The notes: generated by a model from the sequence alone, not told the origin. Shown: positions 1-22,381, counted from the stretch's first letter. The stretch: 64,000 bases of DNA from Clostridiales bacterium (GCA_016281775.1 JAEEJH010000079.1:1636-65635), one strand, 5' to 3'. Program-made: numbers and translations.

Positions 1-799
1 CACGCGCTTTTTCGAGGTCGTGCCCGACCTCTTTCAGCGCTTTGGTCATGTACTTGTGCACGTATTTCGAAATGGCGTCGCCTGCGTCGCCGCCTTTCGG
101 GTTCGTGATCCGGATCGCCGTGGTGAAGCCGTACGGAAAATCGTTAATGTTGTAAACGGTTTTGCCGTTTCTCTTGTGTCCGGAGTTCACCAGGTTCAGA
201 CCGTTTTCGTTCATGACGCCGTGAAAGTGGATCCCGACGTTTCCCTGGATCCGGAAGTCATCGCCCTGGTATCTCTCTCTCGCTTTGTTGATATTGTGGT
301 ACTCCGGCACGAGGATATACGCCAGGTGATCACGTCTGACGCGGTTATCGAGCCAGACGGAGAGCTTTTTTATGATCTCGTCGTAGTTCGTGCGGCTGAT
401 CTCCTGCTCGTTCAGTGTGAGCGTGACGAAAAGATTCAGTTGTCGGTTACACTGTATTTTGTCGTACAGTCTCCGGTGAGCCGTCTTGTAATTCCGGATC
501 ATCGCGTTTATCGCTTCGTCGACGTCAGAGCTGCTCTCGTCTTTGACGTCTTCCAGGTGTATGCCCATGTTGTCGCCGTACATCGTCTCGATGAGCTCGA
601 GCACCGGCGCGGGTGTTCCGACCGGCAGCGTTTTCCGGAAGCCGTCAAAGATCGCTTTGCTCGCGACGATGATCTGATACGGACGGAGTGATCCGTCCGG
701 CTGCGGGTAGTATTTAATCCGGACGTTGTAATCGGTGCGGCTACGCCGCGGTGCGCCGTTCGGCGCGGTTGACCTCTTCGAGGTCGGCTGAATAGACAC
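1..799 (-). CDS. Rolling-circle replication initiator (HUH endonuclease, superfamily I, two-tyrosine type). The C-terminus runs off the window at position 1 and the start is uncertain.
   Basis: This is my own reverse-strand translation; it is absent from the ORF track because no stop lies in the window. Motif 1 is NLFVTLTLNEQ (FVTLTL at 413-430). Motif 2 is GNVGIHFHGVMNE (HFH at 221-229). Motif 3 is AISKYVHKYMTKAL (YVHKY at 50-64). The frame stays open up to the stop at 824-826. The only canonical starts are GTG 797-799, GTG 602-604 and ATG 581-583, and none has a good Shine-Dalgarno sequence. The listed + ORF 20..691 is its antisense shadow. Confidence 0.65.
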   Translation of the reverse strand, partial: MSIQPTSKRSTAPNGAPRRSRTDYNVRIKYYPQPDGSLRPYQIIVASKAIFDGFRKTLPVGTPAPVLELIETMYGDNMGIHLEDVKDESSSDVDEAINAMIRNYKTAHRRLYDKIQCNRQLNLFVTLTLNEQEISRTNYDEIIKKLSVWLDNRVRRDHLAYILVPEYHNINKARERYQGDDFRIQGNVGIHFHGVMNENGLNLVNSGHKRNGKTVYNINDFPYGFTTAIRITNPKGGDAGDAISKYVHKYMTKALKEVGHDLEKAR

Positions 800-849
800 G
801 GTGCATGACGGAATGATGTGCCATTAATCGAGTAGTTTTCGAGAGTGCT

Positions 850-1075
850 AATCCGTAGTAAATGTAAGTCGCACGCGCGAGGCGTGCTCCGGAATCGGTA
901 GCGGCTGACGCCGCTTCCTGGAAGCCGGCAATTAGCCGGCTATCGCTCACTCCGTTCGCTCCGGTTCGGCGGCATACGTTCGCAAATTACGAACCGCGCC
1001 GCTCCAACCATCCCCGCTACGCCTACGGTTGAAGCGGCTTCGTTTGTGCCGCTACCCGCACGGTGACGCGTAACT
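850..1075. other. GC-rich noncoding block of consecutive hairpins and repeated GCCGCT-N-CC motifs, upstream of the rep gene. Candidate replication origin or intergenic region, or the end of the element.
   Basis: Hairpins read directly: GCACGC-gcgag-GCGTGC (871-887); AGCGGC-tgac-GCCGCT (900-915); AGCCGGC-aatta-GCCGGCT (923-941); CGGTTCG...CGAACCG (962-996), with a second GTTCG copy at 978-982; AGCGGC-9nt-GCCGCT (1033-1053). GCCGCT-N-CC occurs at 910-918, 998-1006 and 1048-1056. The two minus-strand ORFs listed here (741..950, 940..1182) have no RBS and an implausible composition. Confidence 0.4.
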
Positions 1076-1188
1076 CCAAATACTCGAGCGCTTTTTGCGG
1101 TAAAGTCTTTTTGTACAAAACGCCGGTATTTTGTATAATAATGCGTATTATTCCCTGCAGAGCCGGCGAGGCTTAAAAACAAGCCGGC

Positions 1189-3039
1189 TTAGTTCTCACC
1201 GATCACTATAAGGTAATCATCTTTATTCAACGTCACCTGTTCGTCAAGTGTGCGATCGAAATATACGTAATCGGAACCGCTCATCGCGCCAAGCAGAACG
1301 TGTCCGTTACTCAGCATCTTTCTGCGAAGTTCTCTGACCGTATACGTTCCCTCGGTCTGCATCGCGCCTGCGTTTTTCAGATACAGCTCGTTGCCTTTGT
1401 TTGACAGGATCTCGCGGAATACGTCTATCAACTCGGGGTTCTCGGCAAGCTGCGCCAGTATAAGCGACGACATACTTGACGTTACGAGAAAATCCGTTCT
1501 GTCGCCCATACCTACGAGATTCTGGTTCTGCTCTTTTTGCATTTCTACCGTTATGTTAAACCGCAGGCCGAACCTCGTTCTTATATCCCTGAGATTCAAA
1601 AGCATGAATATCACGTCCGTGTCGGCTTCGTCTGCATCTTTTTCGTGATCGTTCAGTACTACGATATGCCGCGAAGTTTTCGCCGCTTCGATCAATACGC
1701 TTTCCTGCCGCGGATCGTCTTGATTATAATTGATTTTCATGCATCTGTGTGCTGCGGCGTTTTGCAGTTCTTCCTGTTCTTCTGTTGTGATATCGGGACT
1801 GAAGATGAACACTTCCGACACGTTTTCAGGCAATTCCTGCAGTATCACCGGCAGAGTTTCGTTATGCCCTATAATGACCGCGTCTGTCTTATCAGCCGCT
1901 GTCCAGACGGTTTTTTCTTCTGTATTCGCCAATGCCGTGCCGCTTTCTTCAATCAAAGGCGGAGCGCATTCTTCGGAATATACAAGTATTCTGTCCGTCT
2001 CGGCGAGCTTATAATCGGGGCTCGGATTCAATACGGTCTTTCCTTCACGATATACGCCTACGGGTATCGCGTTGTTCAGCCTTACCGACAGCTCTTCAAA
2101 AGTCAATCCTTCGATACCGCATAGATCCTCCAGATAAAACTCCGACCCTTCAAAATTGAATACTTCCCTGAACAATTCGGACAGACCCGTCTGAGTGCAG
2201 GAATGGGCTATCATTTTTGCAAGTATACTGCTTGTCTGTAAAGTCGTTATATTGTTCGCCGCGGCGATCGACGCGGGAAATCTGTACTCGTTTTTGGATA
2301 TTATCGCGTTTACGCTTATCTCGGGAACGCCTTTTTTCTGCAAAAGCGACGAGACGGCGAGTATGGCTTTGATCGTCTTAAGATCGTCAGTAGGTGCGAC
2401 GATCACGGTTTTGCAAGTCTCAACCGAACATTTTTCAATAGACGCCGGATCTGTTATATCGACCGTTCTGCATACTATCCTTACGTTTTTCGGTATATCG
2501 AGGTTCTCCAGGATATTCTGCTCCATCTCCTGCCTTTCCATATCCTCAGCGATAACTATGCACGCGGGATTCTCCGCGGCGGCGAGAATGAGTTGATTCA
2601 AGAGAGTGTATTCACCCGGATAAAAACCGAGTACGACGATATGGTCTTTTTCAAGAACTAAAGAATTACCTCTTTTCAGATTATCGATCTTCTCTTCTAT
2701 CGCGCTCGTGATTATACCGATAAGAACGCTCGTGAACAAAACGCCGGATATTGCGGTTATCGCCATAATGATAACGTATCCGGGGCTTCCGTCCTCAAAC
2801 GAAGGCATCCATGCGTTGATAACGGTGGCTATACTGTCCCAGAATACCGACGCGACCTCTCCCTCTTCATTGAATCCGAGAAGGATTATAAGCGCCGCCA
2901 TGGTGACCGCCAAGATGACGGAAACGACGATCAGCGCGCGTATAAGACCGAGCGATCCTTTTGTCATCCGGTTGTCAAACCAGTATTGAAACCGTTCTTT
3001 CAGCGTGAATCTTCTTTGTCTGTCGGTTTCTTTTTTCAT
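1189..3039 (-). CDS. Membrane protein with two RCK/TrkA-N-like cytoplasmic modules (CASTOR/POLLUX-type putative ion channel)
   Basis: 616 aa. N-terminal TM helices are LIRALIVVSVILAVTMAALIILLGF and GYVIIMAITAISGVLFTSVLIGIITSAI. Two Rossmann-like modules follow (HIVVLGFYPGEY..., DAVIIGHNETLPVIL...). There is no canonical TVGYG selectivity filter. Confidence 0.55.
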   Translation of the reverse strand: MKKETDRQRRFTLKERFQYWFDNRMTKGSLGLIRALIVVSVILAVTMAALIILLGFNEEGEVASVFWDSIATVINAWMPSFEDGSPGYVIIMAITAISGVLFTSVLIGIITSAIEEKIDNLKRGNSLVLEKDHIVVLGFYPGEYTLLNQLILAAAENPACIVIAEDMERQEMEQNILENLDIPKNVRIVCRTVDITDPASIEKCSVETCKTVIVAPTDDLKTIKAILAVSSLLQKKGVPEISVNAIISKNEYRFPASIAAANNITTLQTSSILAKMIAHSCTQTGLSELFREVFNFEGSEFYLEDLCGIEGLTFEELSVRLNNAIPVGVYREGKTVLNPSPDYKLAETDRILVYSEECAPPLIEESGTALANTEEKTVWTAADKTDAVIIGHNETLPVILQELPENVSEVFIFSPDITTEEQEELQNAAAHRCMKINYNQDDPRQESVLIEAAKTSRHIVVLNDHEKDADEADTDVIFMLLNLRDIRTRFGLRFNITVEMQKEQNQNLVGMGDRTDFLVTSSMSSLILAQLAENPELIDVFREILSNKGNELYLKNAGAMQTEGTYTVRELRRKMLSNGHVLLGAMSGSDYVYFDRTLDEQVTLNKDDYLIVIGEN

Positions 3040-3070
3040 ATCAAGAACCTCTTCTCTTTTTATATTCCGT

Positions 3071-3856
3071 TTATTGATTAACAGTTATTGCCAGTGTATT
3101 TGCGGCGTCTCTGCCGAGTTTTTGTAAGCCGAGCGCGCTGAAATGTCCTCCGACGAACGGATTCATATATACGGGCTCACTGTTCATCTCCGAAGCTTCT
3201 TCGGTAAGCATAAGAAATAACCCGTCTTCTTTACAGACTCTGCTCTGCGCTTCGATGATCGCGTCGTCGCGCAGATCGTTCGTGAATCTGCCTACGCGAA
3301 TAATACAGAATCTTTGCAGACCTATATCGATTTGCAGCGCGTGAGCGATCTCTTTGATCTGTCTGATATAGGTATCTGTATCTTTGCCGATTATCGCGTC
3401 GCTTTCGCCCTGCAGCCAGATCAGATATACGCGGTCCGAGAAGTCTGTTGTTTTTCTGATCGCAGCTTTCGTCTTTTTTACAGTAGCAGTATACCACGCG
3501 CCGCCGGGCATGAAATATTCGAGTTCCGCCGCGCCTTTAGCCGCGCCTACGGCGGTCACTTCCCGCTTTGTCGCTTTTATATATGTGCGGCAGAATTCAG
3601 GAATAAGTGTCGTGTTGCCGTATGCAGAACCGCCGAAAACGTGCTTTTCATGCCAGGTCATACCCATATAATCTTCATACGCTTCGCCCGCTGTTCCGTC
3701 GAAGTGCAGATTCTCGCCGAACGGATCGCACAGCGGCAACAGACTGTCGGTCGCATATTTGTATTCATATGCGCCGCTGACCGCGGAACCGTCCGCAAGC
3801 CTTTCCGTCTGACCCTCCATATTGCTCTGACCGGCGAATATTATAATATCTTTCAT
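3071..3856 (-). CDS. SASA/DUF303-family carbohydrate (sialate-type) O-acetylesterase
   Basis: 261 aa. It has the N-terminal IIFAGQSNMEG block and the later IWLQGESD block typical of the SASA family. It overlaps the upstream ADH stop by 4 nt. Confidence 0.7.
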   Translation of the reverse strand: MKDIIIFAGQSNMEGQTERLADGSAVSGAYEYKYATDSLLPLCDPFGENLHFDGTAGEAYEDYMGMTWHEKHVFGGSAYGNTTLIPEFCRTYIKATKREVTAVGAAKGAAELEYFMPGGAWYTATVKKTKAAIRKTTDFSDRVYLIWLQGESDAIIGKDTDTYIRQIKEIAHALQIDIGLQRFCIIRVGRFTNDLRDDAIIEAQSRVCKEDGLFLMLTEEASEMNSEPVYMNPFVGGHFSALGLQKLGRDAANTLAITVNQ

Positions 3857-4947
3857 TTTATCAATAAGGTTTTTATGTTTTTACCCGCTTTTGCGTCTTC
3901 AAAGGCTTTGTTAACGTCCGATATGTGATAAAACGTGCCGAGTTTCAATACGGTATCCGTCAGTTCCGGACGTTCTTTCATAAATTCAAGATACGCTCTC
4001 ACGTCGCAGAAAGAATACTGTGAAGAGCCGATTATATGCAGCGCCTTGAAAGTGATTATCTCCGGACGAACGGAGACCGCTCCGCTGTCGCTGTATTGAC
4101 CGGGGATCAGATATACGCCGCGGTTGCGCAGTATTTCCAAACCTACCGGCACGGCGGCGGGCGCTCCGGAAGCTTCGATGCACAGATCGACGCCGAGACC
4201 GCTGTTTTCAGCCTGTAAAGCGTTTATGATCGAATCGGTACCGTCTTTTTCTATGCTGAATACCTTGTCTGCACCGAGTTTTTCAGCAAGCTCTTCTCTG
4301 TTTTTATTATCTCTTGCGGTGATAACGTAAACTTTTTTCGCTTTTACGGCCTTAAGATACGTAACTGCGAACAGACCTACCGGACCGAGCCCCTGTACTA
4401 CGGCGACCGTGTTTTCATCAATATCGACTCCGGCACGTTTTGCGAGGCTGATCGAATGAAAAACCGTGGGACCGGGGCACGCGAAGACAGCGACAGCTCT
4501 CGGATCGAGTCCGTCGGGTATTTTGATCAGGTTAGTCAGCGGCGTATAGTTGATCTCTGCGTAACCGCCGTAAAGATAAGGGGGCTTGTCTATGCTCACT
4601 CCGCTCGTCTCTTTCATATTTACGCAGTTTGCGTCGTCGCCGTTTTTGCACAGTAAGCACTCGCCGCAAGGTGTCGCGATATCCGCTATGACGTTATCGC
4701 CTTTTTTCAGACCGTACTTCTCCGCTTCGCTTTCGTCACAGCCGACAAGTCTTCCGACGAATTCATGTCCGATCACTGTCGGCCCCTCGACCGGAAGTTT
4801 GCCGCGGTGGATGTGTATGTCCGTACCGCAGACGCCGCTTGCTATCAGCTCGCTTTTGCCGTAACCGGACGGCGTTTCGGCAACGGGAAATTCCCTTACT
4901 TCAAACGGTTTTTCAGCTCCGACAAATACTGCTGCTTTTGCTTTCAT
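3853..4947 (-). CDS. Zinc-dependent medium-chain alcohol/polyol dehydrogenase
   Basis: 364 aa. It carries the GVCGTDIH catalytic Zn signature, the CGECLLCKNGDDANC structural Zn cysteine cluster, and the VQGLGPVG Rossmann motif. Confidence 0.85.
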   Translation of the reverse strand: MKAKAAVFVGAEKPFEVREFPVAETPSGYGKSELIASGVCGTDIHIHRGKLPVEGPTVIGHEFVGRLVGCDESEAEKYGLKKGDNVIADIATPCGECLLCKNGDDANCVNMKETSGVSIDKPPYLYGGYAEINYTPLTNLIKIPDGLDPRAVAVFACPGPTVFHSISLAKRAGVDIDENTVAVVQGLGPVGLFAVTYLKAVKAKKVYVITARDNKNREELAEKLGADKVFSIEKDGTDSIINALQAENSGLGVDLCIEASGAPAAVPVGLEILRNRGVYLIPGQYSDSGAVSVRPEIITFKALHIIGSSQYSFCDVRAYLEFMKERPELTDTVLKLGTFYHISDVNKAFEDAKAGKNIKTLLIK

Positions 4948-4956
4948 AACAGACTC

Positions 4957-5724
4957 CTATTCTATATAAGTTATAAAATATTTATTATATATTTCCTTTA
5001 TTGATTCTATTTCGGATGCGCTTTGTATCGGTACGTTTCTGTAAGCGTATTCGATCCCGAGCGCGTCGTATTTTGCGCTTCCGAGGCGGTGATACGGCAA
5101 AAGACCGACGCGTTTTACTCCCAGATCAAGCAGATCCGTACAGATACGTTCACATTCGCTCACGGCTGTGTTTATGCCCGGTATAAGCGGTATCCTCACG
5201 TGTACCGTCCTGCCTGACGATATGAGCCTTTTAAGATTGCAGCGCACAATATCTATGTCGCCGTTTATAATGCTGCTGTATATATTGCGGTCGGCAGACT
5301 TATAATCAAAGTAGAATATATCCGTTTGATCAATTACCGATTCAAAATACCGCCACGGCACGCAGCCGGCGGTATCTATCAGAGAAGTTACTCCGTTATC
5401 GTTAAGCATACGGCACAGTTCGCCTAGCGCCTCCGCTTGAAGCATCGGCTCACCGCCCGAGAAAGTCACACCGCCGCCGCTCGCTCTGTAATACTCGACG
5501 TCTTCAAGCACGTCCGCAAGCACTTCTTCCGTACTCATGATTTTTCCGCAAGTCACTTTTTTGCCGGTATTATAAGCAAGCGTCTGAGGCTGTGAAGAAA
5601 TGTTTTCGGGGTTATGACACCACGGGCAGCGCAGATTACAGCCTTTTAAGAAGACGGTCGTTCTTATGCCCGGTCCGTCGCCGGTCGAAAATCTCTGTAT
5701 GCTCGATACGTTCAGTTCTTTCAT
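4957..5724 (-). CDS. Glycyl-radical enzyme activating protein (radical SAM)
   Basis: 255 aa. It has GDGPGIRTTVFLKGCNLRCPWCHNPE (CxxxCxxC) near the N-terminus. It overlaps the upstream GRE stop by 4 nt. Confidence 0.9.
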   Translation of the reverse strand: MKELNVSSIQRFSTGDGPGIRTTVFLKGCNLRCPWCHNPENISSQPQTLAYNTGKKVTCGKIMSTEEVLADVLEDVEYYRASGGGVTFSGGEPMLQAEALGELCRMLNDNGVTSLIDTAGCVPWRYFESVIDQTDIFYFDYKSADRNIYSSIINGDIDIVRCNLKRLISSGRTVHVRIPLIPGINTAVSECERICTDLLDLGVKRVGLLPYHRLGSAKYDALGIEYAYRNVPIQSASEIESIKEIYNKYFITYIE

Positions 5725-7823
5725 ACCGTTTCGTGCTGAGTTCTGCTGAGTATGTCTTCCTGTACTTCTCTGCCGAGCGTTACGAATATCGCCGAGAAGC
5801 CCGAAACGCGCACGACGAGCGTCGGATAGTTCTCAGGGTGCTCCATAGCGTCGATCAGCGTTTCTCTCGACGTTGAATTTATCTGTATCTCCTGCCCGCC
5901 GCGACTGAAATAGACGCGTATCAGCTGAAGTAGTTTTTCGCGCTTGCCGTCTTTAAATGCCGCAGGCGTGAATTTCTGATTGACGACCGTACCGCACGCA
6001 CAGCGCGTATAATCGGGCTTGGAGAGGCTCAGAAGCGTCGACGTTACGCCTCGAGTATCGCATCCGTACGTAGGCGACGCCGCGTCTGATAACGGCTTGC
6101 CGGCGAGTCTTCCGTCAGGAGTAGCCGCAAGGTCTCTGCCCGCGTGTATATTCGATACATTAGCCGCCATGGCGGTGTAGACGGCGCCGCCGTCATACGT
6201 AGTATAGTTATCGAACATATCGTTAAGCGTCTTTGTATACCATACCGCGTATTTGTCGGCGTATTCACTGTTGTTGCCGTATTTGGGCGCCGATCTGCAG
6301 AGTTCGCGCAATTCTTCATATCCGGCGAAATCTGCTTTCAAGGCTTCTGCTATTTCGGAAAGTTTTGCTTTCTTTGTTTCATAGACGGTTTTTTCGATAG
6401 CCGCAAGCGAGTCGCTTACCGTACCGATGCCCATAAGAGCCGCACCGTGCACCGAAGGATATTTGCTGCCGCCCATGTTTATGTCGAGACCCCGTTCGAT
6501 ACAGAAGTCGCAGAAACACGACAGAAACGGCGACGTCATATTCTCCGGATCCTCCACGTACGCGTTCGCTCTCATTCTCTGTATATACTCTTCGACGCCT
6601 ATGGCGAGTTGAGCTTCGTATATGCTCATGAACTCGTCCATATCGGTTATGTTATCCAGCGCTTCCGCGTCGTATTTCAAAAGTATATCTTCAAGATAAC
6701 AGATCGGATCGAATCTGTTGTCTGACCACGGCGGCTGCATACCTGTTATGAAATTTTCGATACAGCCGACCATGCAGTAATTACGCACGTCTCTTATATC
6801 ATAGCCTTTGCGTGATAACGCTGTGATATTGACAGGATCGTTCATAAGCGCGGGATAACCGAGACCGGTGCCTATGACTTTGAGGCATTCATCGAGAAAT
6901 TCATCCGGGCAGTCGGGCGTTATACGCGCGGAGAGGTTCGGCCCCGGCAGATTTACGTCGCGCACGGCGTGAAGCACACAGTAACTCAGTCCGTTTACGG
7001 AACAGTTCCCTTCTTCATCAACGCCGCCGATACATATATTAACTACGTCGTCGCCGCCCGAGAATCTGCGTTCGCATATCTTCAAAAAAGCGTTTGCAAG
7101 CAGTTCTGTCGCATACTCGTCTGTAAGCGAGCCGTTTTCGATATCCTGTTTATAAAGTGGATACAAGAACATGTCGATGCGCCCTATCGCCATCGCGTAT
7201 CTGCCTTCGGAGACAAAGCAGTTGTGGATCATCCATACGAGCTGAAGCCCCTCCATAAAAGTCTTAGGAGCGTGTTTAGTCAAAGCAATGCAGTTGTCAG
7301 CAATAAGTGTAAGACGTTTTTCATCATATCCCGGCGTGCCGATAAGCGCTTTAGCGGCTTCGGCGTAAGCAGTCAGCTTATCGCACAGAGCGATAAGCGT
7401 TTTTTTCATACTGTCAAGAAATGCGATCTTTTCGGCGTCGTCTTTATGAGCTTCTTTAGATTTTTCGATTTTCCCGATAAGTCCCGGTATACCGATATTC
7501 ACGGCTGTGAAATAATCAGGCGCGAAATGATCTACTCCCTGCCAGAAATTGCGCTCAGGATATTTTGCCATATATTGCGAAACAAGTTCCGCATCCTCCT
7601 GCGTCGGCGCAACGTAATAAGGCCTTATACTGCCGACGATCAGATCGTTTTTGTAAATATAAGGTTTCGGTTGAGTGAACACGGCGGCGATCCCGTCGGC
7701 GCGTATATCCGGCAGGCATTCCGACCGGGACGCTTCATACCCGCGGCATTTGAACAGATGCGGACAGAATACGCCCTGCGGCGCATTTTTCATTTCTTCT
7801 TTAAGACCGTTCAGAATACTCAT
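5721..7823 (-). CDS. Glycyl radical enzyme, PFL2/dehydratase-like, unusually short (700 aa)
   Basis: The C-terminal glycyl radical motif is LVVRVSGFSAIFV (Gly675 codon at 5799-5801). The Cys loop is NYCMVGCIENF, with Cys354 (codon 6762-6764) followed by Glu356. That is the GCxE pattern seen in GRE eliminases/dehydratases. Confidence 0.85.
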   Translation of the reverse strand: MSILNGLKEEMKNAPQGVFCPHLFKCRGYEASRSECLPDIRADGIAAVFTQPKPYIYKNDLIVGSIRPYYVAPTQEDAELVSQYMAKYPERNFWQGVDHFAPDYFTAVNIGIPGLIGKIEKSKEAHKDDAEKIAFLDSMKKTLIALCDKLTAYAEAAKALIGTPGYDEKRLTLIADNCIALTKHAPKTFMEGLQLVWMIHNCFVSEGRYAMAIGRIDMFLYPLYKQDIENGSLTDEYATELLANAFLKICERRFSGGDDVVNICIGGVDEEGNCSVNGLSYCVLHAVRDVNLPGPNLSARITPDCPDEFLDECLKVIGTGLGYPALMNDPVNITALSRKGYDIRDVRNYCMVGCIENFITGMQPPWSDNRFDPICYLEDILLKYDAEALDNITDMDEFMSIYEAQLAIGVEEYIQRMRANAYVEDPENMTSPFLSCFCDFCIERGLDINMGGSKYPSVHGAALMGIGTVSDSLAAIEKTVYETKKAKLSEIAEALKADFAGYEELRELCRSAPKYGNNSEYADKYAVWYTKTLNDMFDNYTTYDGGAVYTAMAANVSNIHAGRDLAATPDGRLAGKPLSDAASPTYGCDTRGVTSTLLSLSKPDYTRCACGTVVNQKFTPAAFKDGKREKLLQLIRVYFSRGGQEIQINSTSRETLIDAMEHPENYPTLVVRVSGFSAIFVTLGREVQEDILSRTQHETV

Positions 7824-7834
7824 AATGACCTCCT

Positions 7835-8545
7835 TTATGATTCTTCAATGGACGTGAATCGCCATGACATTATCGTATCTCTTATGATCCCCGATCCGCA
7901 GTACGGGCAGACTGTCTGCGCGGTCGAGTCAAAAGCACCGCCGCATTGCGGGCAGATCAGCGTCTTCTGTTCTATATCGTTTTCGCGCAGTTTCAGCGTA
8001 TACTGTACCGCGTAACGCTCTTCGAAAGGCTTGCCGTCGAGCGAATACCCGACCGACGCCTGATACGTAATAGTCGCGTATTCTTTCGTTTTTTCATATT
8101 TGGATATCGCTACCGCGTGTACCTTTTCTCCGGTCACGTTTCCTTTAGCTTTGGCGGTGTCAGCCATCCGTTCAAGACCCGGTTCGGTAACACTGTCCGT
8201 AAAGCTCTCTTTACCTTCGTATTTTATCGACAGATATTCGAATATCAGTCTTTTTACGGCGCTCACAGCGTCACTTTCGTGAAAATCGGGAAAGTCCTTC
8301 AGTATCTGCGGCAGATATATAGAGGTCGCTCCGAAGACCGTTCTCGGCTCGGGGTTGAATTCCGCTTCTTTCGCGCTCTGTATCGCGTATTTGAGATCGC
8401 TCATTTTAAGCCCACCGAAAAGCGAATCAGCGCTCGATCTCACCTTTCGTTTGATTCTGCCGATAATAAACGATATAACGGCAATACCGACGATTATCCA
8501 TATAATCCACATATTTCTGCCGATGAACGAGATTATCTCTGCCAT
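7835..8545 (-). CDS. Hypothetical membrane-anchored protein with a C-terminal zinc ribbon
   Basis: 236 aa. It has one N-terminal TM helix (MWIIWIIVGIAVISFIIG) and a C-terminal CPQCGG...CPYCGS. Its stop is 11 nt from the GRE start, and 18 nt separate it from the upstream gene. Confidence 0.5.
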   Translation of the reverse strand: MAEIISFIGRNMWIIWIIVGIAVISFIIGRIKRKVRSSADSLFGGLKMSDLKYAIQSAKEAEFNPEPRTVFGATSIYLPQILKDFPDFHESDAVSAVKRLIFEYLSIKYEGKESFTDSVTEPGLERMADTAKAKGNVTGEKVHAVAISKYEKTKEYATITYQASVGYSLDGKPFEERYAVQYTLKLRENDIEQKTLICPQCGGAFDSTAQTVCPYCGSGIIRDTIMSWRFTSIEES

Positions 8546-8563
8546 ATACGCGGCTCCTTTTCA

Positions 8564-10648
8564 TTATGTTTTTCTGTATTTTGCGTTTTTGCCTACGCTC
8601 ATTCTGAAATCTATCTTTGATGGCGCCGGATGTTCCGATTCAGCCGTCTCAAGAAGTTTTTCGCGGTTTTCATCAAAACTTACGCCCGTCTTTTGCGCGA
8701 TAAGTCTTGCGTGATACTCGAACCAGAGATCAGTAAGGCTCGTCTCGCCTTCTCTGACCGCCGACAGATCATGTTCGAACAGTTTGCCTACATACTCAAG
8801 TTCGTTCAGCTTGAGCGCGCACGCGGCGGCGAGTATCATAATTCTGTCTTTATTCTGAAATTCGGTTTTAAGCGATCGAAACAGCTCCCACGATTTTTTA
8901 TACTTACCGTTTTCGTTGAGAAATTCCATATACTCGACCGCAAACGAGAAATCGCAGCCGGAGGCAGGGTCTGCAAAGATGAGATCGTAATACTTCTCAG
9001 CTCTTTCTTTATCGCCGCGCAGCCTGTATAATTCAGCAAGATTGCGTTTGGCCCATACGTTAGGCTCGCACCTGTCGGATAGAAGCCATTCGTCTTCGGC
9101 AAGTTTTTCATATACTCCGGCTTCGCTCCAGTATCTCGCTTCATCTGCGACTTTTGTATCGTCCCAGTGTTCAAAAAGCATATTGCCGTAATGCAGATGC
9201 GCGTACCAGTTATCTCTCTTCGATAAAAGCCTCATCCATTTATCAGACACCATCCATGAAGCCGGTATCTTATCGGGCTCGGTCCTCTTCAATTCTCCGC
9301 TGTTCAATAACGATATCCACACGGACTGTTCTTCCGAAAGTGAGCTTTCGGGAAAACAGGCGGTATCAGGAAGTTTTTTCTCACCGAATTTCTCCCGGCG
9401 CATATTCTCAAGAGCGCCCCAACCGCTCGCGCGGTGCACGATATCGCGTTCGGTCACGGCGATATCCGCGCTTTTGCGGTATTGCTCATCGCAGGCAAGC
9501 AGAAATTCTTCGCTTACCAGTCCTTCGACCGTAAGGCCGAACGCTGTATCCGCCTCGTCCAGACTGACGCCGTGTATTTTATCCGGCTCTATGAAAGCGC
9601 AGCCGAAGCACTGCGTCCACTCAATAACCGAGTTCTTCGGAAACGGTCTGTCGTGCATCTGACTTCTCGCTATACCCGCCTGTATCTCGATATATTCGCC
9701 GTTTACGCCGTCTGACAGATACTGCTGCCAGTGTCTGCCGCCGTCATGATTGCCCCAGCAAAACATTTTGTGATATATCAGCGGCGCGTTCGATCTGTCA
9801 TAGAAAGCGTAACCGTCTTTATTTACTGCCGCTTCCCACGAAGTTGCAGCGCCGTTTTCGGGTTGAAAGAAGTAGTCAAAACTCCTCGTCGCGTTGATCG
9901 AATACGACAGATCTCCCGGCATGACCGACAGATAAGGCAGTTTTTCGTAGGTCAGTGTGTTGCCGCATACCGCTATAACGTCCTTCGTCGACGAAAGTAC
10001 TCTCGTGCATCCGTCTTCCGGTACCGCAACGTTCGTCCACCAGTAAGTCGTTTTATCGGTATCGTCAGGATTTATGAGACGTACGTGAGAAAACAGCTGT
10101 CTTGAGGCCCGAGGCAGATGAAAATCTATCTGCCATATACATTCTTTAGCTCGTTCGAATTCGTATATACGCAGAAATTCTTCGCCGTCGCCGCCTTTAA
10201 GGATCGCCGCCCATATGTCATCACAGGTGAAATACGTATGACCCGGAGCGCCGAAATTCCATTCGATACCGCCTGACAGCCACGCGTCACGCACTGCAAG
10301 ATTGCCGGGTTGCACGACCGTATTAGCCATAAGCATTTCGCGCCCGTGCTCTTTATCGTACATAGACCACAGCTTACCGCCGAGAGACGGAGTGAAAACG
10401 GCTTTGATATATTCGTTTTCCATAACGACGGTATCGAGGCGCAGTATTTTGCGATCCCTCCCGTATCTGTTCTGCATTCTGTAAGGCAGAGTGCGCGGAC
10501 AGCTGTTGAGATCCTTCTCAGCCTCTTCGGGAAAACCCTCGCCGGTCCTGAACACCCAGAAGCCGGTGCGGCGTCTGAATCGGGGCAAGGGGTCGGTCCC
10601 CTCCGGTAAAGCGCCCGGTATAATGAGTTCGTCTTTTCTGACAGACAT
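8564..10648 (-). CDS. DUF5107-like protein (aldose-epimerase-like N-terminal part plus C-terminal helical/TPR-like repeats)
   Basis: 694 aa. I recognise the N-terminal pattern (LPYRMQNRYGRDR..., GGIEWNFG..GHT) as DUF5107-like. The C-terminal half is helical-repeat rich. The family assignment was not verified by search. Confidence 0.5.
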   Translation of the reverse strand: MSVRKDELIIPGALPEGTDPLPRFRRRTGFWVFRTGEGFPEEAEKDLNSCPRTLPYRMQNRYGRDRKILRLDTVVMENEYIKAVFTPSLGGKLWSMYDKEHGREMLMANTVVQPGNLAVRDAWLSGGIEWNFGAPGHTYFTCDDIWAAILKGGDGEEFLRIYEFERAKECIWQIDFHLPRASRQLFSHVRLINPDDTDKTTYWWTNVAVPEDGCTRVLSSTKDVIAVCGNTLTYEKLPYLSVMPGDLSYSINATRSFDYFFQPENGAATSWEAAVNKDGYAFYDRSNAPLIYHKMFCWGNHDGGRHWQQYLSDGVNGEYIEIQAGIARSQMHDRPFPKNSVIEWTQCFGCAFIEPDKIHGVSLDEADTAFGLTVEGLVSEEFLLACDEQYRKSADIAVTERDIVHRASGWGALENMRREKFGEKKLPDTACFPESSLSEEQSVWISLLNSGELKRTEPDKIPASWMVSDKWMRLLSKRDNWYAHLHYGNMLFEHWDDTKVADEARYWSEAGVYEKLAEDEWLLSDRCEPNVWAKRNLAELYRLRGDKERAEKYYDLIFADPASGCDFSFAVEYMEFLNENGKYKKSWELFRSLKTEFQNKDRIMILAAACALKLNELEYVGKLFEHDLSAVREGETSLTDLWFEYHARLIAQKTGVSFDENREKLLETAESEHPAPSKIDFRMSVGKNAKYRKT

Positions 10649-10659
10649 TTCGTCACCCT

Positions 10660-13600
10660 TTATTGATCGTCGTCATCATCGTCGACTGAGTTGAACATAC
10701 TGAACATGGTTATCTGATTCGTTTCGTCAAGACCGCTCAGTACGCCTTCATTTCTCAATATGTCTATAACGCCGTTCGTTAGCTTAGCGTACTGTTTCAG
10801 TTCGAGTATAGACGTGATCTTGTGTTTACTGCAGGCTTCAGCTATGTTTTCAGCCGCCGCCTCGCCCAAGCCGTTGAGGCTTGCGAACGGCACTCTGATC
10901 TTGCCGTTTTCAGGCAGAAAAGCTTTGCCGTCCGATTTGCCGAGTTTGACCGGCAGAAACTTTATACCGCGGCACATAGCTTCAAGTATGAGCTGACAAG
11001 CGGAATATACTTCGTTTTCCCGCTGAGTCGTTTCTTTTCTCTTTTCATAGTCCGCCATCCATTCACGCACCGCGGCTTTGCCTTTCATTACAAGGGCGGC
11101 GTCGAAACCGTCCGGCGCGGCGGTAAAATATGCAGCGTAGAATTCGAGAGGATTATAGACCTTGTGATAACCGAGCCGCAGAGCCGATATAACGTATGCA
11201 GCGGCGTGGGCCTTAGGGAACATATATTTGATCTTAAGGCACGATTCGATATACCATTCCGGTACGTTATGCTCGCGCATCGCCTGAAAATGTTCCTCTT
11301 TAAGGATTTTCGGCGGTTTATTTCCCTTACGTACTATCTCCATTATATTGAACGCCATCGAGGGTTCGAGACCTTTATACATAAGATATACCATTATGCT
11401 GTCGCGCGTTCCTATAACTTCGGATATGGTACAGGTGCCGCTCTTGATTAGATCCTGAGCGTTTCCGAGCCAGACGTTCGTGCCGTGCGAAAGTCCCGAT
11501 ACCTGCAGTAAGTCGGTAAAAGTTTTCGGCTGAGAGTCTTCAAGCATCTGGCGTACGAATTTCGTTCCGAATTCCGGCAGACCGAACGTACCGCTCTTGA
11601 GCGGATCGGCAGAACCCGATACGTCGATATCAGACGGAAGTATGCCGAGCGGTTCGCACGAGGTGAACAGCTTCATGACCTGCGGATCCGTAAGAGGCGT
11701 ATCAAGTATATTCGTATGCGTGTATTTTTCAAGTATCTTGTATTTTGTCGGCACATCGTGACCGAGTATATCGAGTTTAAGTATCGTATCGTGCAGATAT
11801 TCAAATGCAAAGTGCGTAGTTATGATATCCGACTTCGGATCGTCCGCCGGGTGCTGTACCGGCGTAAAATCGTACACCTCGTATTCTCTCGGCACAACTA
11901 TGATGCCGCCCGGATGCTGACCTGTCGTACGTTTACTGCCGACGAGCATACTTACAAGATGCTGTATCTCTGCGTTGCGAAGACTTATATTGTTGTCTTC
12001 AAGGTACTTCATCACGTACAGTCCGTACGCTGTCTTTGCCGCGAGCGTACCTATCGTACCGGCGCGGAAAACGTTCTCCGCTCCGAAAAGCACCTCGGTA
12101 TACTTATGCGCGTTAGCCTGAACGTCGCCCGAAAAGTTGAGATCTATGTCAGGCGATTTATCGCCTTTGAAGCCGAGAAACGTTTCAAACGGAATATCGT
12201 GACCGTCCCTTACGTATTTTGCTCCGCATTTCGGGCAGTTTTTCTCCGGCAGATCGAAGCCGGAGCCGTAAGAACCGTCGGTTATGAATTCCGAATTTTT
12301 GCAATTCGGGCATCTGTAATGAGGCGGCAGCGGGTTGACCTCGGTGATATTCGCCATAGTTGCAACGAATGATGAACCGACCGAGCCTCTCGAACCAACG
12401 AGATATCCCTGCGCCTCGCTGTTTTCAACGAGTTTTTTCGCAATGACGTACAGAACGCCGAATTTATGCTCGAATATAGATCCGAGTTCTTTTTCGAGTC
12501 TGTTTTTTACTATATCTGGCGGATTGTCGCCGTACAGGCGGTGCATGTTTTTATAGCAGATATCGCGCAGTTCGTCGTCAGCGCCGGGTATACTCGGAGG
12601 ATAACTGCCTTTCGGTATCGGGCGTATGTTTTCGATCATATCTGCAACGGCGTTCGTATTTCTCACAACGACGTCATATCTTGTCTCGCTGTCGAGATAA
12701 TAGAATTCGTCAAGCATTTCTTCGGTCGTACGCATATAAACGCCGATATCGTTATCCGAATCTTTGAGTTTCTTGCCGTGATATATTATGCGCTTGCCGA
12801 TCTCGTCGAATTTCTCTGTGACGTGAGCGTCTGTCGTCGCGCATACGGGTTTGCCGTTCTTCTGCCCGAGTTCTATGATACGTTTATTTATGGTAATAAG
12901 CTGTTCAATGCCGGAAACGGTCCCCTCTTTTACAAGGAACTGATTGTTAGAGAGCGGCTGTATTTCGAGATAATCGTAATACTGAGCTATCTCGTTGAGT
13001 TCTTCGTCGGATTTGCCGTCCAGTATCGCCTGATATAACTCTCCGGCACAGCAGGCGGAGCCTATAATGAGTCCTTCTCTGTATTCGTTCAGTACCGATT
13101 TGGGTATCTGCGGCTTTCTGTAATAATACTTGAGATTTGACAGAGAGACGAGCTTGTAAAGATTTTTAAGACCGGTTTTGTTCTTTGCGAGAATGATAAT
13201 ATGATGTGTTCTCTGCTTGAGAAAATCCGTACCGCCCGCCATGGCGGTATTCATTTCAGAGATCGTCCCGATCCCTTCTTCGCGCAGTCTTTCTATCATA
13301 CGGAAGAATATGAGCGCGAGCATTTCCGCATCGTCTGAAGCCCGGTGATGGTTGAAATCGCCTAAACCGTAATAATTGGCGATCACGTCGAGCTTATGCT
13401 TTTTCAGCTCCGGGTTGACGTAACGCGAAAGCGCGACCGTGTCTATATATACCGGTTCGAATTTTATATCATGGCGTTTTGCCGCCGCGGAAATGAAGTT
13501 GATATCGAACGACGCGTTATGCGCTATCAGCACGTCGTCGCCGGCAAACTCGAGAAACGCTTTTACCGCTTCTTCTTCAGACGGAGCTCCGACGAGCATC

Positions 13601-15135
13601 TCGTCGCTAATACCTGTCAGTTCCGTTATATTTTCCGGCACGTGACATTCGGGATCCACATACGTATTGAATACGTCTGTCACCTCGCCGTCCTTAACTT
13701 TTACGGCGCCGATCTCTATCAGTCTGCACGACAAAGCGGAAAGACCTGTCGTCTCGGTATCGAACACTACGAATTCATCCGAAAAAGTGCCCTCTCCCGC
13801 GCCGTAAGCCGCACGCTGGGTATCGTCTGTAAAATACCCCTCCATACCGTAGATGACTTTTATATCGATATCTTTGTCTTTTTTGAGTTTTTCCGCGGCG
13901 ATCATAGCTTCGGGAAAACCCTGAACGTTGCCGTGATCTGTTATCGCAACAGCTCTGTGACCCCACGCCGCGGAGATCTCAACCGCCTGATCCGGCGGTA
14001 TGGTGGCGTCAAGCGCTGACATCTGGGTATGCAAATGAAGCTCTACGCGCTTCTCTTCCGCCTTATCGGATCTTAACAGCTTTTTGACCGACATAACGCC
14101 GTCCGGAGACATAACGTAATCGCGATCGAACGTATCTATTTTTATTCTGCCTTTAACGGCTACGGCTTTGCCGTCCTTCATACCTGCCAGATCGGACGCC
14201 TTGTCCGCAGGCAGAACGGCTTTGACCTTCATGGTCGAGTCGCCGTCGGTCACGTAGAATGAAACCGACGTTTTGTCCTTGCCTCTGATCTCTCTCGAAT
14301 CACATCCGAAGACGGTACCGATTATACATACGTGAGACATCTGGCCGCCGATCGATCTTATCGGCACAGGTTCAATGCTGAATTCGCTGCCGTATATAAG
14401 TCCCGCGCCGACGGTATTGAACCTGAATCTGCCGATCATGACGTTTTCGGGATCCCGGTTGTCGTCGAACGGCGCTTCTTCGCAAAGCGAAACGAGCTTT
14501 TGCTTTATCTCTTTCTGTATCGCTTCTTTTTCGTTTGCGTTCTCTTCGTTTTTCCAGCGCTCATAGCTGTGAAGCTGCTGTATCGCTTTCTGAACCGTGT
14601 CGCGTTCTAATTCAGCCTGCTCGGCCTCGAACCGTTCGTAACCGGTACGGCCGTCGTCTACCAGGTGCAGATTGACTTTCTTTCTTATATCAAATTCTTC
14701 TTCTATTATCTTACTTATCGCAAACGCTGCGTCGGAGCATTCTATAAGCGCCATGCCGCTGCTCGTCTGGTGTACGTATATATCGATCTCGTCGCCTATA
14801 TCGGCTTCGTAGTTGATTATAAGTCCTCTCGTGAGCGCTTTTCTTGTACTTGCTTCTATAAATACTTCGCTAAGATATTTTGCACCGAAGAATTCCGACG
14901 GATATTTCGGAGCTATTCTTACGGACTTCATATCGTAAAACGCTCTTATGTTTTCTTCGGTTTTATAAAGCTGCTGTTTGCCGTATAGCCGAGAAAACTT
15001 CGCCGTGACGACGAAGTTCGTTTTATCCTGATCTATCTTGGTGCTGACGACGATACCGTCGGAGAGCAGTTTTTCTTCATCTCTGTCCTTCGGCTCGTAT
15101 TTCTGGAAAATCTCTTTAAGTGTCTTGTTTGCCAT
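10660..15135 (-). CDS. polC: DNA polymerase III PolC-type alpha subunit
   Basis: 1491 aa. It has a PHP domain (VELHLHTQMSALD) and an inserted DEDDh exonuclease (VVFDTETTGLS, HNASFDINF, HRASDDAEM). Zn-finger cysteines are CPNC...CPKC. The start overlaps the ispG stop by 1 nt. Confidence 0.95.
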   Translation of the reverse strand: MANKTLKEIFQKYEPKDRDEEKLLSDGIVVSTKIDQDKTNFVVTAKFSRLYGKQQLYKTEENIRAFYDMKSVRIAPKYPSEFFGAKYLSEVFIEASTRKALTRGLIINYEADIGDEIDIYVHQTSSGMALIECSDAAFAISKIIEEEFDIRKKVNLHLVDDGRTGYERFEAEQAELERDTVQKAIQQLHSYERWKNEENANEKEAIQKEIKQKLVSLCEEAPFDDNRDPENVMIGRFRFNTVGAGLIYGSEFSIEPVPIRSIGGQMSHVCIIGTVFGCDSREIRGKDKTSVSFYVTDGDSTMKVKAVLPADKASDLAGMKDGKAVAVKGRIKIDTFDRDYVMSPDGVMSVKKLLRSDKAEEKRVELHLHTQMSALDATIPPDQAVEISAAWGHRAVAITDHGNVQGFPEAMIAAEKLKKDKDIDIKVIYGMEGYFTDDTQRAAYGAGEGTFSDEFVVFDTETTGLSALSCRLIEIGAVKVKDGEVTDVFNTYVDPECHVPENITELTGISDEMLVGAPSEEEAVKAFLEFAGDDVLIAHNASFDINFISAAAKRHDIKFEPVYIDTVALSRYVNPELKKHKLDVIANYYGLGDFNHHRASDDAEMLALIFFRMIERLREEGIGTISEMNTAMAGGTDFLKQRTHHIIILAKNKTGLKNLYKLVSLSNLKYYYRKPQIPKSVLNEYREGLIIGSACCAGELYQAILDGKSDEELNEIAQYYDYLEIQPLSNNQFLVKEGTVSGIEQLITINKRIIELGQKNGKPVCATTDAHVTEKFDEIGKRIIYHGKKLKDSDNDIGVYMRTTEEMLDEFYYLDSETRYDVVVRNTNAVADMIENIRPIPKGSYPPSIPGADDELRDICYKNMHRLYGDNPPDIVKNRLEKELGSIFEHKFGVLYVIAKKLVENSEAQGYLVGSRGSVGSSFVATMANITEVNPLPPHYRCPNCKNSEFITDGSYGSGFDLPEKNCPKCGAKYVRDGHDIPFETFLGFKGDKSPDIDLNFSGDVQANAHKYTEVLFGAENVFRAGTIGTLAAKTAYGLYVMKYLEDNNISLRNAEIQHLVSMLVGSKRTTGQHPGGIIVVPREYEVYDFTPVQHPADDPKSDIITTHFAFEYLHDTILKLDILGHDVPTKYKILEKYTHTNILDTPLTDPQVMKLFTSCEPLGILPSDIDVSGSADPLKSGTFGLPEFGTKFVRQMLEDSQPKTFTDLLQVSGLSHGTNVWLGNAQDLIKSGTCTISEVIGTRDSIMVYLMYKGLEPSMAFNIMEIVRKGNKPPKILKEEHFQAMREHNVPEWYIESCLKIKYMFPKAHAAAYVISALRLGYHKVYNPLEFYAAYFTAAPDGFDAALVMKGKAAVREWMADYEKRKETTQRENEVYSACQLILEAMCRGIKFLPVKLGKSDGKAFLPENGKIRVPFASLNGLGEAAAENIAEACSKHKITSILELKQYAKLTNGVIDILRNEGVLSGLDETNQITMFSMFNSVDDDDDDQ

Positions 15136-16190
15136 TACAGTTTATTTATTTCTTCCCTTAGAACTTGCAGTATTTTATCGTACGGTATTTTCTTTTCGGG
15201 TCTTCCGCGTTTGAAAAGCAGAGCTTCGCCTTTGCCGCCGGCGATACCTAAGTCACATTCAGCCGCTTCGCCCGGTCCGTTTACGGCGCATCCCATAAGC
15301 GCGACCTTGACGGGGCGCGAGGGTCGAAGCTCCGGTATGATCGAATCGAATTCGTCGCAGAGTTTTATCAGATCGATCTGCGTTCTGCCGCACGTAGGGC
15401 ATGAAACGACCGATATGAGCGGAGATGACAGACCGAGCGATTCGAGCAGAGCCTTTGCCGCTCTGACCTCTTCGACCGGATCGTCCGTAAGCGAGACCCT
15501 TACCGTATCGCCTATACCGTCGCATAAAAGCGAACCTATTCCGACCGCGCTTTTATATAAGCCCGTTCTCTTTGTTCCCGCCTCGGTAACTCCGAGATGT
15601 ATCGGATAACCGCATTTTTCCGCGATGATCCGGTTAGCTTTTATCATCGTGATAACGTCGGACGATTTGACCGACAAAACTATATCGTCAAAATCGAAAC
15701 GCTCAAGAAGCGACGCGTGATACAGCGCGCTTTCCGCCAAAGCTTCGGGCGTCGGCGATCCGTATTTTGCAAGTATGTGCTTTTCGAGCGAACCGCCGTT
15801 GACGCCTATGCGTATCGGTATTCTTTTAAGTCTTGCCGCGTCGGCTACCGCTTTTATCCTGTCTTCGTCGCCGATATTGCCGGGGTTTATTCTGATCTTG
15901 TCTATACCGGCGTCAATGCAGGCAAGCGCCGTCTTGTAATCAAAATGTATGTCCGCTACGAACGGCATATACGGGAATTCGCTTTTGAATTCGTATATCG
16001 CGCGCGCGTCTTCGGGTTTTACGACGGCGAATCTGATTATATCGCAGCCGGCTTCGGCAAGTCTTTTGATTTGAGCTTTTGACGCTTCTGTATCGGCTGT
16101 GTCTGTGTTGAGCATCGACTGTACCGTTATGCGCGAGCCGCCGCCTATACTCACGCCGTTTGCTCTTATTTCTTTTGAAATCCTTCTCAT
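15135..16190 (-). CDS. ispG: 4-hydroxy-3-methylbut-2-en-1-yl diphosphate synthase
   Basis: 351 aa with full-length GcpE-like sequence. Cluster cysteines are SCPTCGRT ... GCAVNGPGE. Confidence 0.95.
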   Translation of the reverse strand: MRRISKEIRANGVSIGGGSRITVQSMLNTDTADTEASKAQIKRLAEAGCDIIRFAVVKPEDARAIYEFKSEFPYMPFVADIHFDYKTALACIDAGIDKIRINPGNIGDEDRIKAVADAARLKRIPIRIGVNGGSLEKHILAKYGSPTPEALAESALYHASLLERFDFDDIVLSVKSSDVITMIKANRIIAEKCGYPIHLGVTEAGTKRTGLYKSAVGIGSLLCDGIGDTVRVSLTDDPVEEVRAAKALLESLGLSSPLISVVSCPTCGRTQIDLIKLCDEFDSIIPELRPSRPVKVALMGCAVNGPGEAAECDLGIAGGKGEALLFKRGRPEKKIPYDKILQVLREEINKL

Positions 16191-17269: not shown

Positions 17270-17273
17270 TTAA

Positions 17274-19282: not shown

Positions 19283-19303
19283 TTCGTCAGATGAGCGCGG
19301 CGG

Positions 19304-20544: not shown

Positions 20545-20565
20545 TTTTTATTCTCCTTTTCATTC

Positions 20566-21303: not shown

Positions 21304-21382
21304 AAAGATCCGACCTTTCGAAAATATTTTACTTCAATATATATTGTACTATATATTTTTTAATTTGTAAAGAGAAAAATAT

Positions 21383-21420
21383 AAAAAAACAGCCCGTTTA
21401 CCGAAAATTTCGGTAAACGG
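21383..21420 (-). terminator. Rho-independent terminator after tsf
   Basis: A 10-bp stem, CCGTTTACCG (21394-21403) with CGGTAAACGG (21411-21420), and a 7-nt loop. On the minus strand it is followed by GCTGTTTTTTT. Confidence 0.8.
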
Positions 21421-21439
21421 AGCCGTTATTTTGTTACGC

Positions 21440-22363: not shown

Positions 22364-22381
22364 GTTTTTATCCTGCCTTTC

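Follow-up and report, generated by a model that had tools for sequence, protein, structure and literature searches.

Eliminases within the superfamily of glycyl radical enzymes (GREs) control several gut-microbial reactions that matter to the host, namely the formation of trimethylamine, hydrogen sulfide and propanol and the use of hydroxyproline. A 2026 review of the superfamily, which lists all characterized eliminases and isomerases and points out that whole clades are still unassigned, names the CXE motif as the defining common feature of the GRE 1,2-eliminases and dehydratases. In the mechanism that it gives for glycerol dehydratase (GD; DhaB1 of Clostridium butyricum, PDB 1R8W), the thiyl radical takes a hydrogen from C1, Glu435 deprotonates the C1 hydroxyl, and His164 protonates the leaving C2 hydroxyl; the review presents this arrangement of Cys, Glu and His as the mechanism of the dehydratases. 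Further described relatives are the 1,2-propanediol dehydratases (PD; 5I2A/5I2G from Roseburia inulinivorans, and 9RCO), CutC, and the Escherichia coli enzymes YbiW and PflD, whose substrates are carbohydrates (1,5-anhydroglucitol-6-phosphate and 1,5-anhydromannitol-6-phosphate) and whose product is a keto compound. Here, we describe a compact GRE encoded on a 64,000-nucleotide stretch of DNA from a Clostridiales bacterium (GCA_016281775.1 JAEEJH010000079.1:1636-65635; hereafter, the window), where it is followed by a radical S-adenosylmethionine (SAM) activase, a medium-chain Zn-dependent alcohol dehydrogenase (Zn-ADH), and a SASA-type esterase (Table 1).

This enzyme probably performs GRE chemistry of a recognizable class, but belongs to an uncharacterized, structurally reduced clade that has a dehydrogenase of its own and a minimal activase. 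The module is common in rumen and hindgut Clostridia. None of the characterized eliminases and isomerases listed in the review corresponds to this clade, and a full-text literature search for it (GRE combined with rumen, ADH, esterase or inositol, and TM0436) returned nothing.

A discrete clade of compact GREs

Among proteins of known structure, the window GRE is closest in sequence to GD (1.3e-96; 327 bits, against a self-score of 1631 bits) and then to CutC (HMMER, 4e-95). Its identity in a MAFFT alignment amounts to 34% with GD, 33% with CutC, 31% with YbiW, and 29% with PflD; the structural alignment with GD gives 28%, and identity to PD is ~27%. The protein scored below the cut-off of every NCBIfam model, including the broad PFL2/GD model TIGR01774 (398 versus 678 bits), the CutC model TIGR04394 (351 versus 1050 bits), and the pyruvate formate-lyase model TIGR01255 (125 versus 994 bits), and its Cys loop, VGCIEN, contains a single Cys in place of the adjacent Cys-Cys pair of pyruvate formate-lyase. 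An earlier note on this DNA had recognized no characterized GRE pathway in this gene combination, and these data support its view: at no more than 34% identity, the GRE did not cluster with any characterized clade.

The GRE is 65 to 150 residues shorter than the characterized PFL2-type enzymes (765 to 850 amino acids), and 87 residues shorter than GD. The same note had ascribed a shortfall of about 100 or more residues to the N-terminus. While the protein is indeed short, its N-terminus is kept, and the alignment places the shortfall mainly in two internal deletions of ~27 residues each within the N-terminal third, with smaller loop deletions in addition. The reduced length is not a gene-calling artefact, since more than 100 homologues with 58 to 91% identity, from uncultured Clostridia and annotated just as “hypothetical” or in generic terms, all measure 695 to 735 amino acids. 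Searching 1.8 billion cluster representatives exhaustively with HMMER, we further delineated a discrete, deeper clade of short GREs (~15 to 20 representatives of 690 to 726 amino acids, 36 to 52% identical), whose members align to the window GRE from residue ~15 to 40 onward, and beneath which followed ordinary GREs of 750 to 850 amino acids with at most 37% identity.

Scanning one genome per GTDB species, we found relatives of the GRE in 320 species genomes, the best 80 of which were examined as loci. These 80 (52 to 81% identity) all come from metagenome-assembled genomes of herbivore guts, their sources being rumen, omasum, caecum and faeces of cattle, goat, sheep, yak, buffalo, deer, horse and chicken. 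Likewise, the sequencing runs that contained the exact window DNA were bovine or other gut metagenomes.

Eliminase catalytic residues in a changed pocket

An AlphaFold2 model of the GRE, built with 73 homologues, reached a predicted local distance difference test score of 93.3 and a predicted template-modeling (TM) score of 0.93. Foldseek matched it best to GD (TM 0.91), followed by the PD structures 9RCO and 5I2G (0.90) and CutC (0.89), and next by HypD, HpzG, PflD, HplG and YbiW, with TM scores of 0.84 to 0.91 over 50 GRE structures (0.89 to 0.90 for YbiW and PflD). The protein has the barrel and C-terminal radical domain of the superfamily, together with the RVxG loop and the Cys loop with its thiyl Cys. 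As the earlier note had read from the translation, these motifs are VGC354-I-E356-N and RVSG675F; GC354IE and RVSG675F are invariant in the 73 family members, and they identify Gly675 as the predicted glycyl radical site and Cys354 as the predicted thiyl Cys.

The fold is closest to GD and PD, with their catalytic residues kept and their substrate-specifying residues changed. Cys433, Glu435, His164 and Asp447 of GD correspond to Cys354, Glu356, His99 and Asp368, all of which are invariant in the 73 members and are also kept throughout the deep clade of short GREs; the equivalence of His99 and His164 was obtained in both the HMMER and the MAFFT alignments. The CXE motif (C354-I-E356) and the other eliminase catalytic residues are likewise shared with PD, and CutC, YbiW and PflD have the CXE motif as well, the latter two together with the same His. 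Because His99 is retained, an oxygen leaving group is favored for the window GRE, in contrast to CutC.

Other active-site positions differ from GD. The strand His281-Ser282-Ile-Ser284 (HSIS) of GD became Tyr209-Ala210-Met-Ala212 (YAMA), Tyr339 became Val260 within an invariant GGDDVVN, and His446, Tyr640 and Ser642 became Ser367, Ala553 and Asn555, respectively. Of these, GD Ser282, Tyr339 and Tyr640 are the residues that we take to bind the third carbon of glycerol and its C3 hydroxyl, and in the window GRE the corresponding positions hold Ala210, Val260 and Ala553. Some polar positions of GD are hydrophobic in PD too, but the specificity switch from GD to PD (Tyr339 to Phe and Ser642 to Val) is not reproduced, given that these two positions are Val260 and Asn555. 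The choline-binding residue set of CutC is absent as well, where Thr502, Ser503 and Tyr506 are replaced by Ser367, Asp368 and Phe371. Instead, the clade has a signature of its own, consisting of Asp98 just before His99, Arg370, Asn555, Asn558, and an RVSGFSA glycine loop; Asp98, Arg370 and Asn555 are extra relative to GD. Arg370 probably lies on the same face as Asp368, as it sits two residues beyond it on a predicted strand (366 to 371). We infer that the GRE combines a C-O eliminase machinery with a probably roomier and polar pocket that is unlike those of GD, PD, CutC, YbiW and PflD, because the third-carbon residues of GD are replaced and Asp98, Asn555 and Arg370 are present.

An activase without a ferredoxin domain

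The activase has a single CX3CX2C motif (Cys29/33/36) and does not contain the Cys-rich, ferredoxin-like insert that characterizes the PFL2-type activases. It nevertheless groups with these by sequence, matching the PFL2-type model TIGR02494 above its cut-off (241 versus 174 bits) in two stretches that skip the insert, and it is 35% identical to YbiY, 34% to PflC, and 31% to PflA. Aligning it with family members, we found the insert to be missing in the window activase and in four further members, and to be present in E. coli YbiY and PflC. The protein is hence like PflA in its length class (246 amino acids in PflA), in its single cluster motif, and in its lack of the insert, but differs from PflA in its sequence affiliation. 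According to the 2026 review, only the activases of pyruvate formate-lyase and of class III ribonucleotide reductase do without a ferredoxin domain. A sister GRE that is 50% identical to the window GRE is accompanied by a 300-amino-acid activase (L088:5585-6487) that keeps its Fer4 domains, and because this sister lineage retains the ferredoxin domain, the minimal activase represents a secondary loss within an eliminase-type system.

A conserved dehydrogenase and an accessory esterase

To describe the gene neighborhood, the window proteins were compared by tblastn with the 80 loci, and all fractions given here refer to those loci that had room for the partner in question. The activase directly follows the GRE in 59 of 69 loci. 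The Zn-ADH follows the GRE or the activase in 55 of 68 loci (81%), where it is 60 to 75% identical to that of the window, and it abuts the GRE directly in the loci that have no activase. The association extends to deep branches. In one branch of 38% GRE identity, a Zn-ADH gene lies upstream of the GRE and a gene for an SGNH esterase of the GDSL_2 family overlaps the 3′ end of the GRE gene; in another, of 41% identity, the Zn-ADH lies directly upstream. The two dehydrogenases are orthologous to the window ADH, 44% and 40% identical to it, and have the same motifs. From the database side, the top 120 homologues of the ADH are 65 to 82% identical and carry generic names; two of them were looked up, and both lie inside clusters in which an AraC gene precedes the GRE, the activase and the ADH, so that neither of these two provides an ADH relative from outside a GRE context. 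Since the association reaches GRE branches of 38 to 41% identity and ADH homologues lie in GRE clusters, the GRE and the dehydrogenase form an old, co-inherited pair.

The esterase, on the other hand, is an accessory and not a core partner. It occurs downstream in 17 of 62 loci (27%) and anywhere in the locus in 22 of 80, mostly after the ADH, in three loci before the GRE, in one on the opposite strand, and in two after the activase without an ADH. Two SGNH families, SASA and GDSL_2, have been recruited to such loci. The earlier note would have taken the adjacency as fortuitous if homologues elsewhere had shown no association with the dehydrogenase and the esterase; by these data it is not fortuitous, with the esterase as the looser partner.

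Both proteins appear catalytically intact, with all catalytic residues kept in their homologues. The ADH has catalytic zinc ligands at Cys40/His61/Glu62/Cys157, structural zinc ligands at Cys94/97/100/108, and a GxGxxG motif at 186 to 191, with the zinc ligands and GxGxxG invariant in 56 homologues. The SASA protein, which has a GQS11NM nucleophile motif, a QGESD block (Q149 to D153), and His238, invariant in 22 homologues, classifies by these features as a predicted SGNH carbohydrate esterase of family PF03629; as it has no signal peptide, it is predicted to be cytoplasmic. The database matches of the two proteins were considered as a clue to the substrate, and neither gave one: the ADH scored below every NCBIfam equivalog cut-off, with an uncharacterized Thermotoga protein as its nearest structure (1VJ0, 1e-36), and the esterase weakly matched the Arabidopsis esterase 2APJ.

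Beyond these partners, the surroundings vary. A divergent AraC-family regulator stands upstream of the GRE in 25 of 67 loci and is absent in the window. In the flanks of the 80 loci, no gene for a transporter, a kinase, an aldolase, an aldehyde dehydrogenase or a microcompartment shell protein was conserved, and not one of the 80 carried the shell or aldehyde dehydrogenase genes expected for a PD-type locus; a cut-type microcompartment context was absent as well. Nor is any of the companions of YbiW and PflD at the E. coli loci (phosphotransferase system (PTS), aldolase and phosphatase genes, ferredoxin-type activases YbiY and PflC) conserved. A Pfam census of 124 immediately flanking genes returned no family more than five times (aldo/keto reductases 5, GH32/43-like proteins 5, GNAT 4). 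Here and there the flanks contain glycoside hydrolases, and also a rhamnosidase and a pectinesterase; an L-rhamnose isomerase or alpha-L-rhamnosidase is an occasional neighbor, and a Gfo/Idh/MocA gene lies near the GRE in four loci. Beside the loci without an ADH, no substitute oxidoreductase was found.

The deeper branches of the short GREs differ in their partners. Another 38% branch has a fusion of Gfo/Idh/MocA and aldo/keto reductase domains and an activase with a ferredoxin domain. The locus of the 50% sister consists of AraC, the GRE and the Fer4 activase, with a Maa-type O-acetyltransferase, an RpiR/SIS regulator and a HAD hydrolase nearby. In two branches the GRE stands alone. A 42%-identical short GRE (L089:5557-10148) lacks an adjacent activase or ADH and lies beside an alpha-L-rhamnosidase, at the end of a nucleotide-sugar cluster with a UDP-GlcNAc 2-epimerase, a CTP_transf_3 protein and an HMGL-like protein; this cluster looks like one for nonulosonic-acid biosynthesis.

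Layout and expression of the window locus

The open reading frames (ORFs) and Pfam families of the four genes agree with the description in the earlier note (Table 1), and so do the two 4-nt overlaps. An ATGA read in the sequence is common to the GRE stop and the activase start, and another to the ADH stop and the esterase start; 9 nt separate the activase stop from the ADH start, and a strong Shine-Dalgarno sequence, AAGGAGG, precedes the GRE start. The module is part of a single, tightly packed run of minus-strand genes (1 to 15135) that reaches from polC through the Castor/Pollux-RCK gene.

Table 1. Genes of the GRE module and its immediate surroundings in the window.
Feature	Position	Strand	Evidence
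Castor/Pollux-type RCK-domain ion-channel protein, 616 aa	1189-3039	-	ORF, Pfam
SASA/DUF303 SGNH-type esterase, 261 aa	3071-3856	-	ORF, PF03629 (1.2e-16, 61.5 bits)
Zn-ADH (medium-chain Zn-dependent dehydrogenase), 364 aa	3853-4947	-	ORF, Pfam ADH_N, ADH_zinc_N
GRE activase (radical SAM), 255 aa	4957-5724	-	ORF, Pfam Radical_SAM/Fer4_12
Compact GRE, 700 aa	5721-7823	-	PF02901 (PFL-like, 5.2e-113), PF01228 (Gly_radical, 4.2e-27)
Membrane-anchored zinc-ribbon protein, 236 aa	7835-8545	-	Pfam; N-terminal hydrophobic segment, C-terminal CxxC...CxxC
DUF5107/TPR protein, 694 aa	8564-10648	-	Pfam
polC	10660-15135	-	ORF, Pfam

Among metatranscriptome data, one rumen run contained the locus, with one near-perfect contig of 254 nt (one mismatch) at 5607 to 5860. 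This contig covers both the end of the GRE gene and the beginning of the activase gene, and it weakly supports co-transcription of the two. Scans for promoters and terminators yielded as many hits as expected from shuffling and therefore do not define the limits of the operon, and no recognizable terminator was seen between polC and the genes downstream of it.

The DUF5107/TPR and zinc-ribbon genes occupy the space between polC and the GRE, leaving gaps of 11 to 18 nt, and are probably co-transcribed with the GRE. We considered them as members of the pathway and rejected this, because they adjoin the GRE only here and in its closest relative (L001), which places them outside the conserved module. 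In three other loci (L003, L006 and L011) polC directly abuts the GRE. Upstream, the conserved housekeeping run that ends in the GRE module (10660 to 23278, minus strand) comprises rpsB, tsf, pyrH, frr, uppS, cdsA, dxr, an M50 protease gene (rseP-like), ispG and polC. At the other end, the Castor/Pollux-RCK gene begins 31 nt past the esterase stop, and no other locus had it beside the GRE.

Elsewhere in the window lies a full-length ornate large extremophilic (OLE) RNA (29250 to 29880, minus strand; Rfam RF01071, 425 bits, E = 1e-121), flanked by a polyprenyl synthetase gene (29948 to 30838) and by an unassigned ORF of 192 amino acids (28661 to 29239) that could be OapA. This region continues with FtsJ/TlyA-like, NAD kinase, ArgR and RecN genes. 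ARAGORN found no tRNA gene in the whole 64 kb.

A proposed reaction and its alternatives

We propose that the operon encodes a self-contained module in which a neutral polyol, probably of plant origin and of larger size than glycerol or propanediol, undergoes radical dehydration, after which the carbonyl so formed is reduced at the expense of NAD(P)H, and we judge the chances of this reading to be about even. In such a pathway, the minimal radical-SAM activase would place a radical on Gly675 of the GRE, from which a thiyl radical would be generated at Cys354 that abstracts a hydrogen from a carbon carrying a hydroxyl group in a vicinal diol or polyol. Glu356 would then deprotonate that hydroxyl, while His99 would protonate the neighboring C-O leaving group (water, or possibly an alkoxide). 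The elimination would yield a carbonyl-conjugated radical, to which Cys354 returns the hydrogen to give an aldehyde or ketone, and the Zn-ADH would reduce this carbonyl with NAD(P)H, for a net conversion of diol to mono-alcohol that serves as an electron sink in a fermenting cell. Where present, the cytoplasmic SGNH esterase may cleave an acetyl (acyl) ester to free the required hydroxyl, the substrate perhaps being an O-acetylated sugar or polyol, as the earlier note suggested. The conserved adjacent dehydrogenase lends indirect support to a carbonyl-yielding 1,2-elimination by the GRE. It also parallels GD, where an adjacent activase is present and a dehydrogenase is likewise expected to reduce the carbonyl product, except that the partner here is a zinc-dependent medium-chain dehydrogenase/reductase instead of the iron-type DhaT, and that the activase has no ferredoxin domain. 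As no ATP-yielding branch or transporter is attached, the simplest role would be that of an electron sink, or of a pretreatment of a membrane-permeant or intracellularly made plant-derived compound. One may speculate about propanediol (from deoxyhexoses or silage), longer alditols, cyclitols (pinitol, quinate), galactolipid glyceryl glycosides, the glycerol side chain of O-acetylated sialic acids, or choline esters as substrates.

Several observations weigh against the dehydration-and-reduction pathway. In 11 of the 62 loci with enough downstream sequence, neither an adjacent ADH nor a substitute oxidoreductase is present, and the esterase is missing from ~70% of loci. The RNA evidence consists of one short contig, and the pocket assignments derive from sequence alignment to GD and predicted secondary structure. 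The ADH could also act before the GRE, making its substrate instead of consuming its product. Lastly, cleavage of a ring or ether C-O bond is possible too, as YbiW and PflD also keep the CXE motif and the His.

This last point leads to a reading in which the GRE is a YbiW/PflD-type isomerase or C-O lyase that cuts a ring or ether C-O bond in, for example, an anhydro-alditol, an O-methyl-cyclitol, or a glyceryl or other glycoside, with the ADH reducing the keto product. The His motif of the E. coli enzymes (GDAH / GQGH, compared with GVDH here) and the closeness of their folds to the GRE model are in line with it, and so are the partner oxidoreductases, which are of types that act on sugars or cyclitols (the polyol-type Zn-ADH, the Gfo/Idh/MocA-aldo/keto-reductase fusion, Gfo/Idh/MocA), and the carbohydrate-active genes scattered in the flanks. 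Yet the low identity to YbiW and PflD does not place the GRE among these isomerases, a PTS, kinase or aldolase context as at the E. coli loci is absent, and sequence and fold alike come slightly nearer to GD and PD, and we consider this reading rather unlikely. GD and PD being the best structural and sequence matches, the GRE might alternatively be orthologous to a known small-diol dehydratase, in a compact form that needs no microcompartment, and act on 1,2-propanediol, glycerol, ethylene glycol or 2,3-butanediol, with the ADH making the alcohol, e.g., propanol from propanediol derived from deoxyhexoses or silage. The conserved catalytic His, Cys, Glu and Asp would suit such an enzyme, the hydrophobic residues at the positions of GD Tyr339 and Tyr640 parallel the switch from GD to PD, a module without a transporter fits a membrane-permeant diol, AraC-family regulation is common, and an L-rhamnose isomerase or alpha-L-rhamnosidase occasionally adjoins. 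What speaks against it is the pocket, where the Phe and Val of the PD signature face Val260 and an invariant, polar Asn555, where the HSIS strand has turned into YAMA, and which appears larger by alignment, with the clade-specific Asp98 and Arg370; moreover, an acetyl-esterase partner is hard to reconcile with free C2-C4 diols. We thus regard a small-diol dehydratase, too, as improbable, if worth keeping in view.

It is quite improbable that the GRE is a C-N or C-S lyase whose substrate is an amino alcohol, a sulfonate, or a quaternary amine (choline or a related compound, released from esters or phosphoesters), with the ADH reducing the aldehyde. The near-equal scores of CutC and GD (4e-95 versus 1e-96), a pocket region rich in acidic and aromatic residues (Asp98, Asp258, Asp259, Asp368, Trp366, Phe358 and Tyr209), and the esterases and HAD phosphatases of some contexts, which could free choline-like head groups, all agree with this idea. 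The score against TIGR04394 is however only a third of the cut-off, and the invariant general-acid His99 is what one would expect if the leaving group were -OH or -OR. For IslA, IseG and HpsG, the 2026 review describes an Arg/Gln/Arg sulfonate triad, which has no evident counterpart in the window GRE, where no direct alignment to those enzymes was made. Finally, the gene order could be incidental, or the GRE inactive or decaying, in which case the four genes would form no pathway. The promoter and terminator scans that gave nothing above chance and the highly variable flanks would allow for this, but the catalytic motifs are all intact and invariant, the genes are translationally coupled, a transcript runs across the GRE/activase junction, and dozens of species-level genomes share the gene order, at 38 to 81% GRE identity. 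The conservation data effectively refute an incidental order, which we therefore consider scarcely credible.

Implications

An unassigned GRE clade with its own dehydrogenase partner offers a ready-made coupled assay for substrate screening. Biochemical work on GREs is slowed chiefly, according to the 2026 review, by insoluble activases and by the reconstitution of their clusters, and the compact GRE with its activase of a single cluster motif makes for a simpler system to reconstitute. The window activase and the ferredoxin-bearing activase of the 50% sister (L088), moreover, form a natural pair for probing the role of the auxiliary clusters. If the eliminase assignment is true, the window GRE would be the first of its class to be naturally served by a ferredoxin-less activase.

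For the family, the pair of short GRE and Zn-ADH may stand for an undescribed GRE reaction, in the form of a radical deoxygenation or C-O cleavage of an abundant plant polyol, cyclitol, or glyceryl or other glycoside, which is sometimes presented as an acetyl ester; we put this forward tentatively, as a possibility that falls clearly short of an even chance. If true, the module would provide Clostridia of the rumen and hindgut with a widespread and so far unrecognized sink for NAD(P)H, and, as a reductive deoxygenation module, it would compete for reducing equivalents in the rumen and so bear on fermentation balance and methane.

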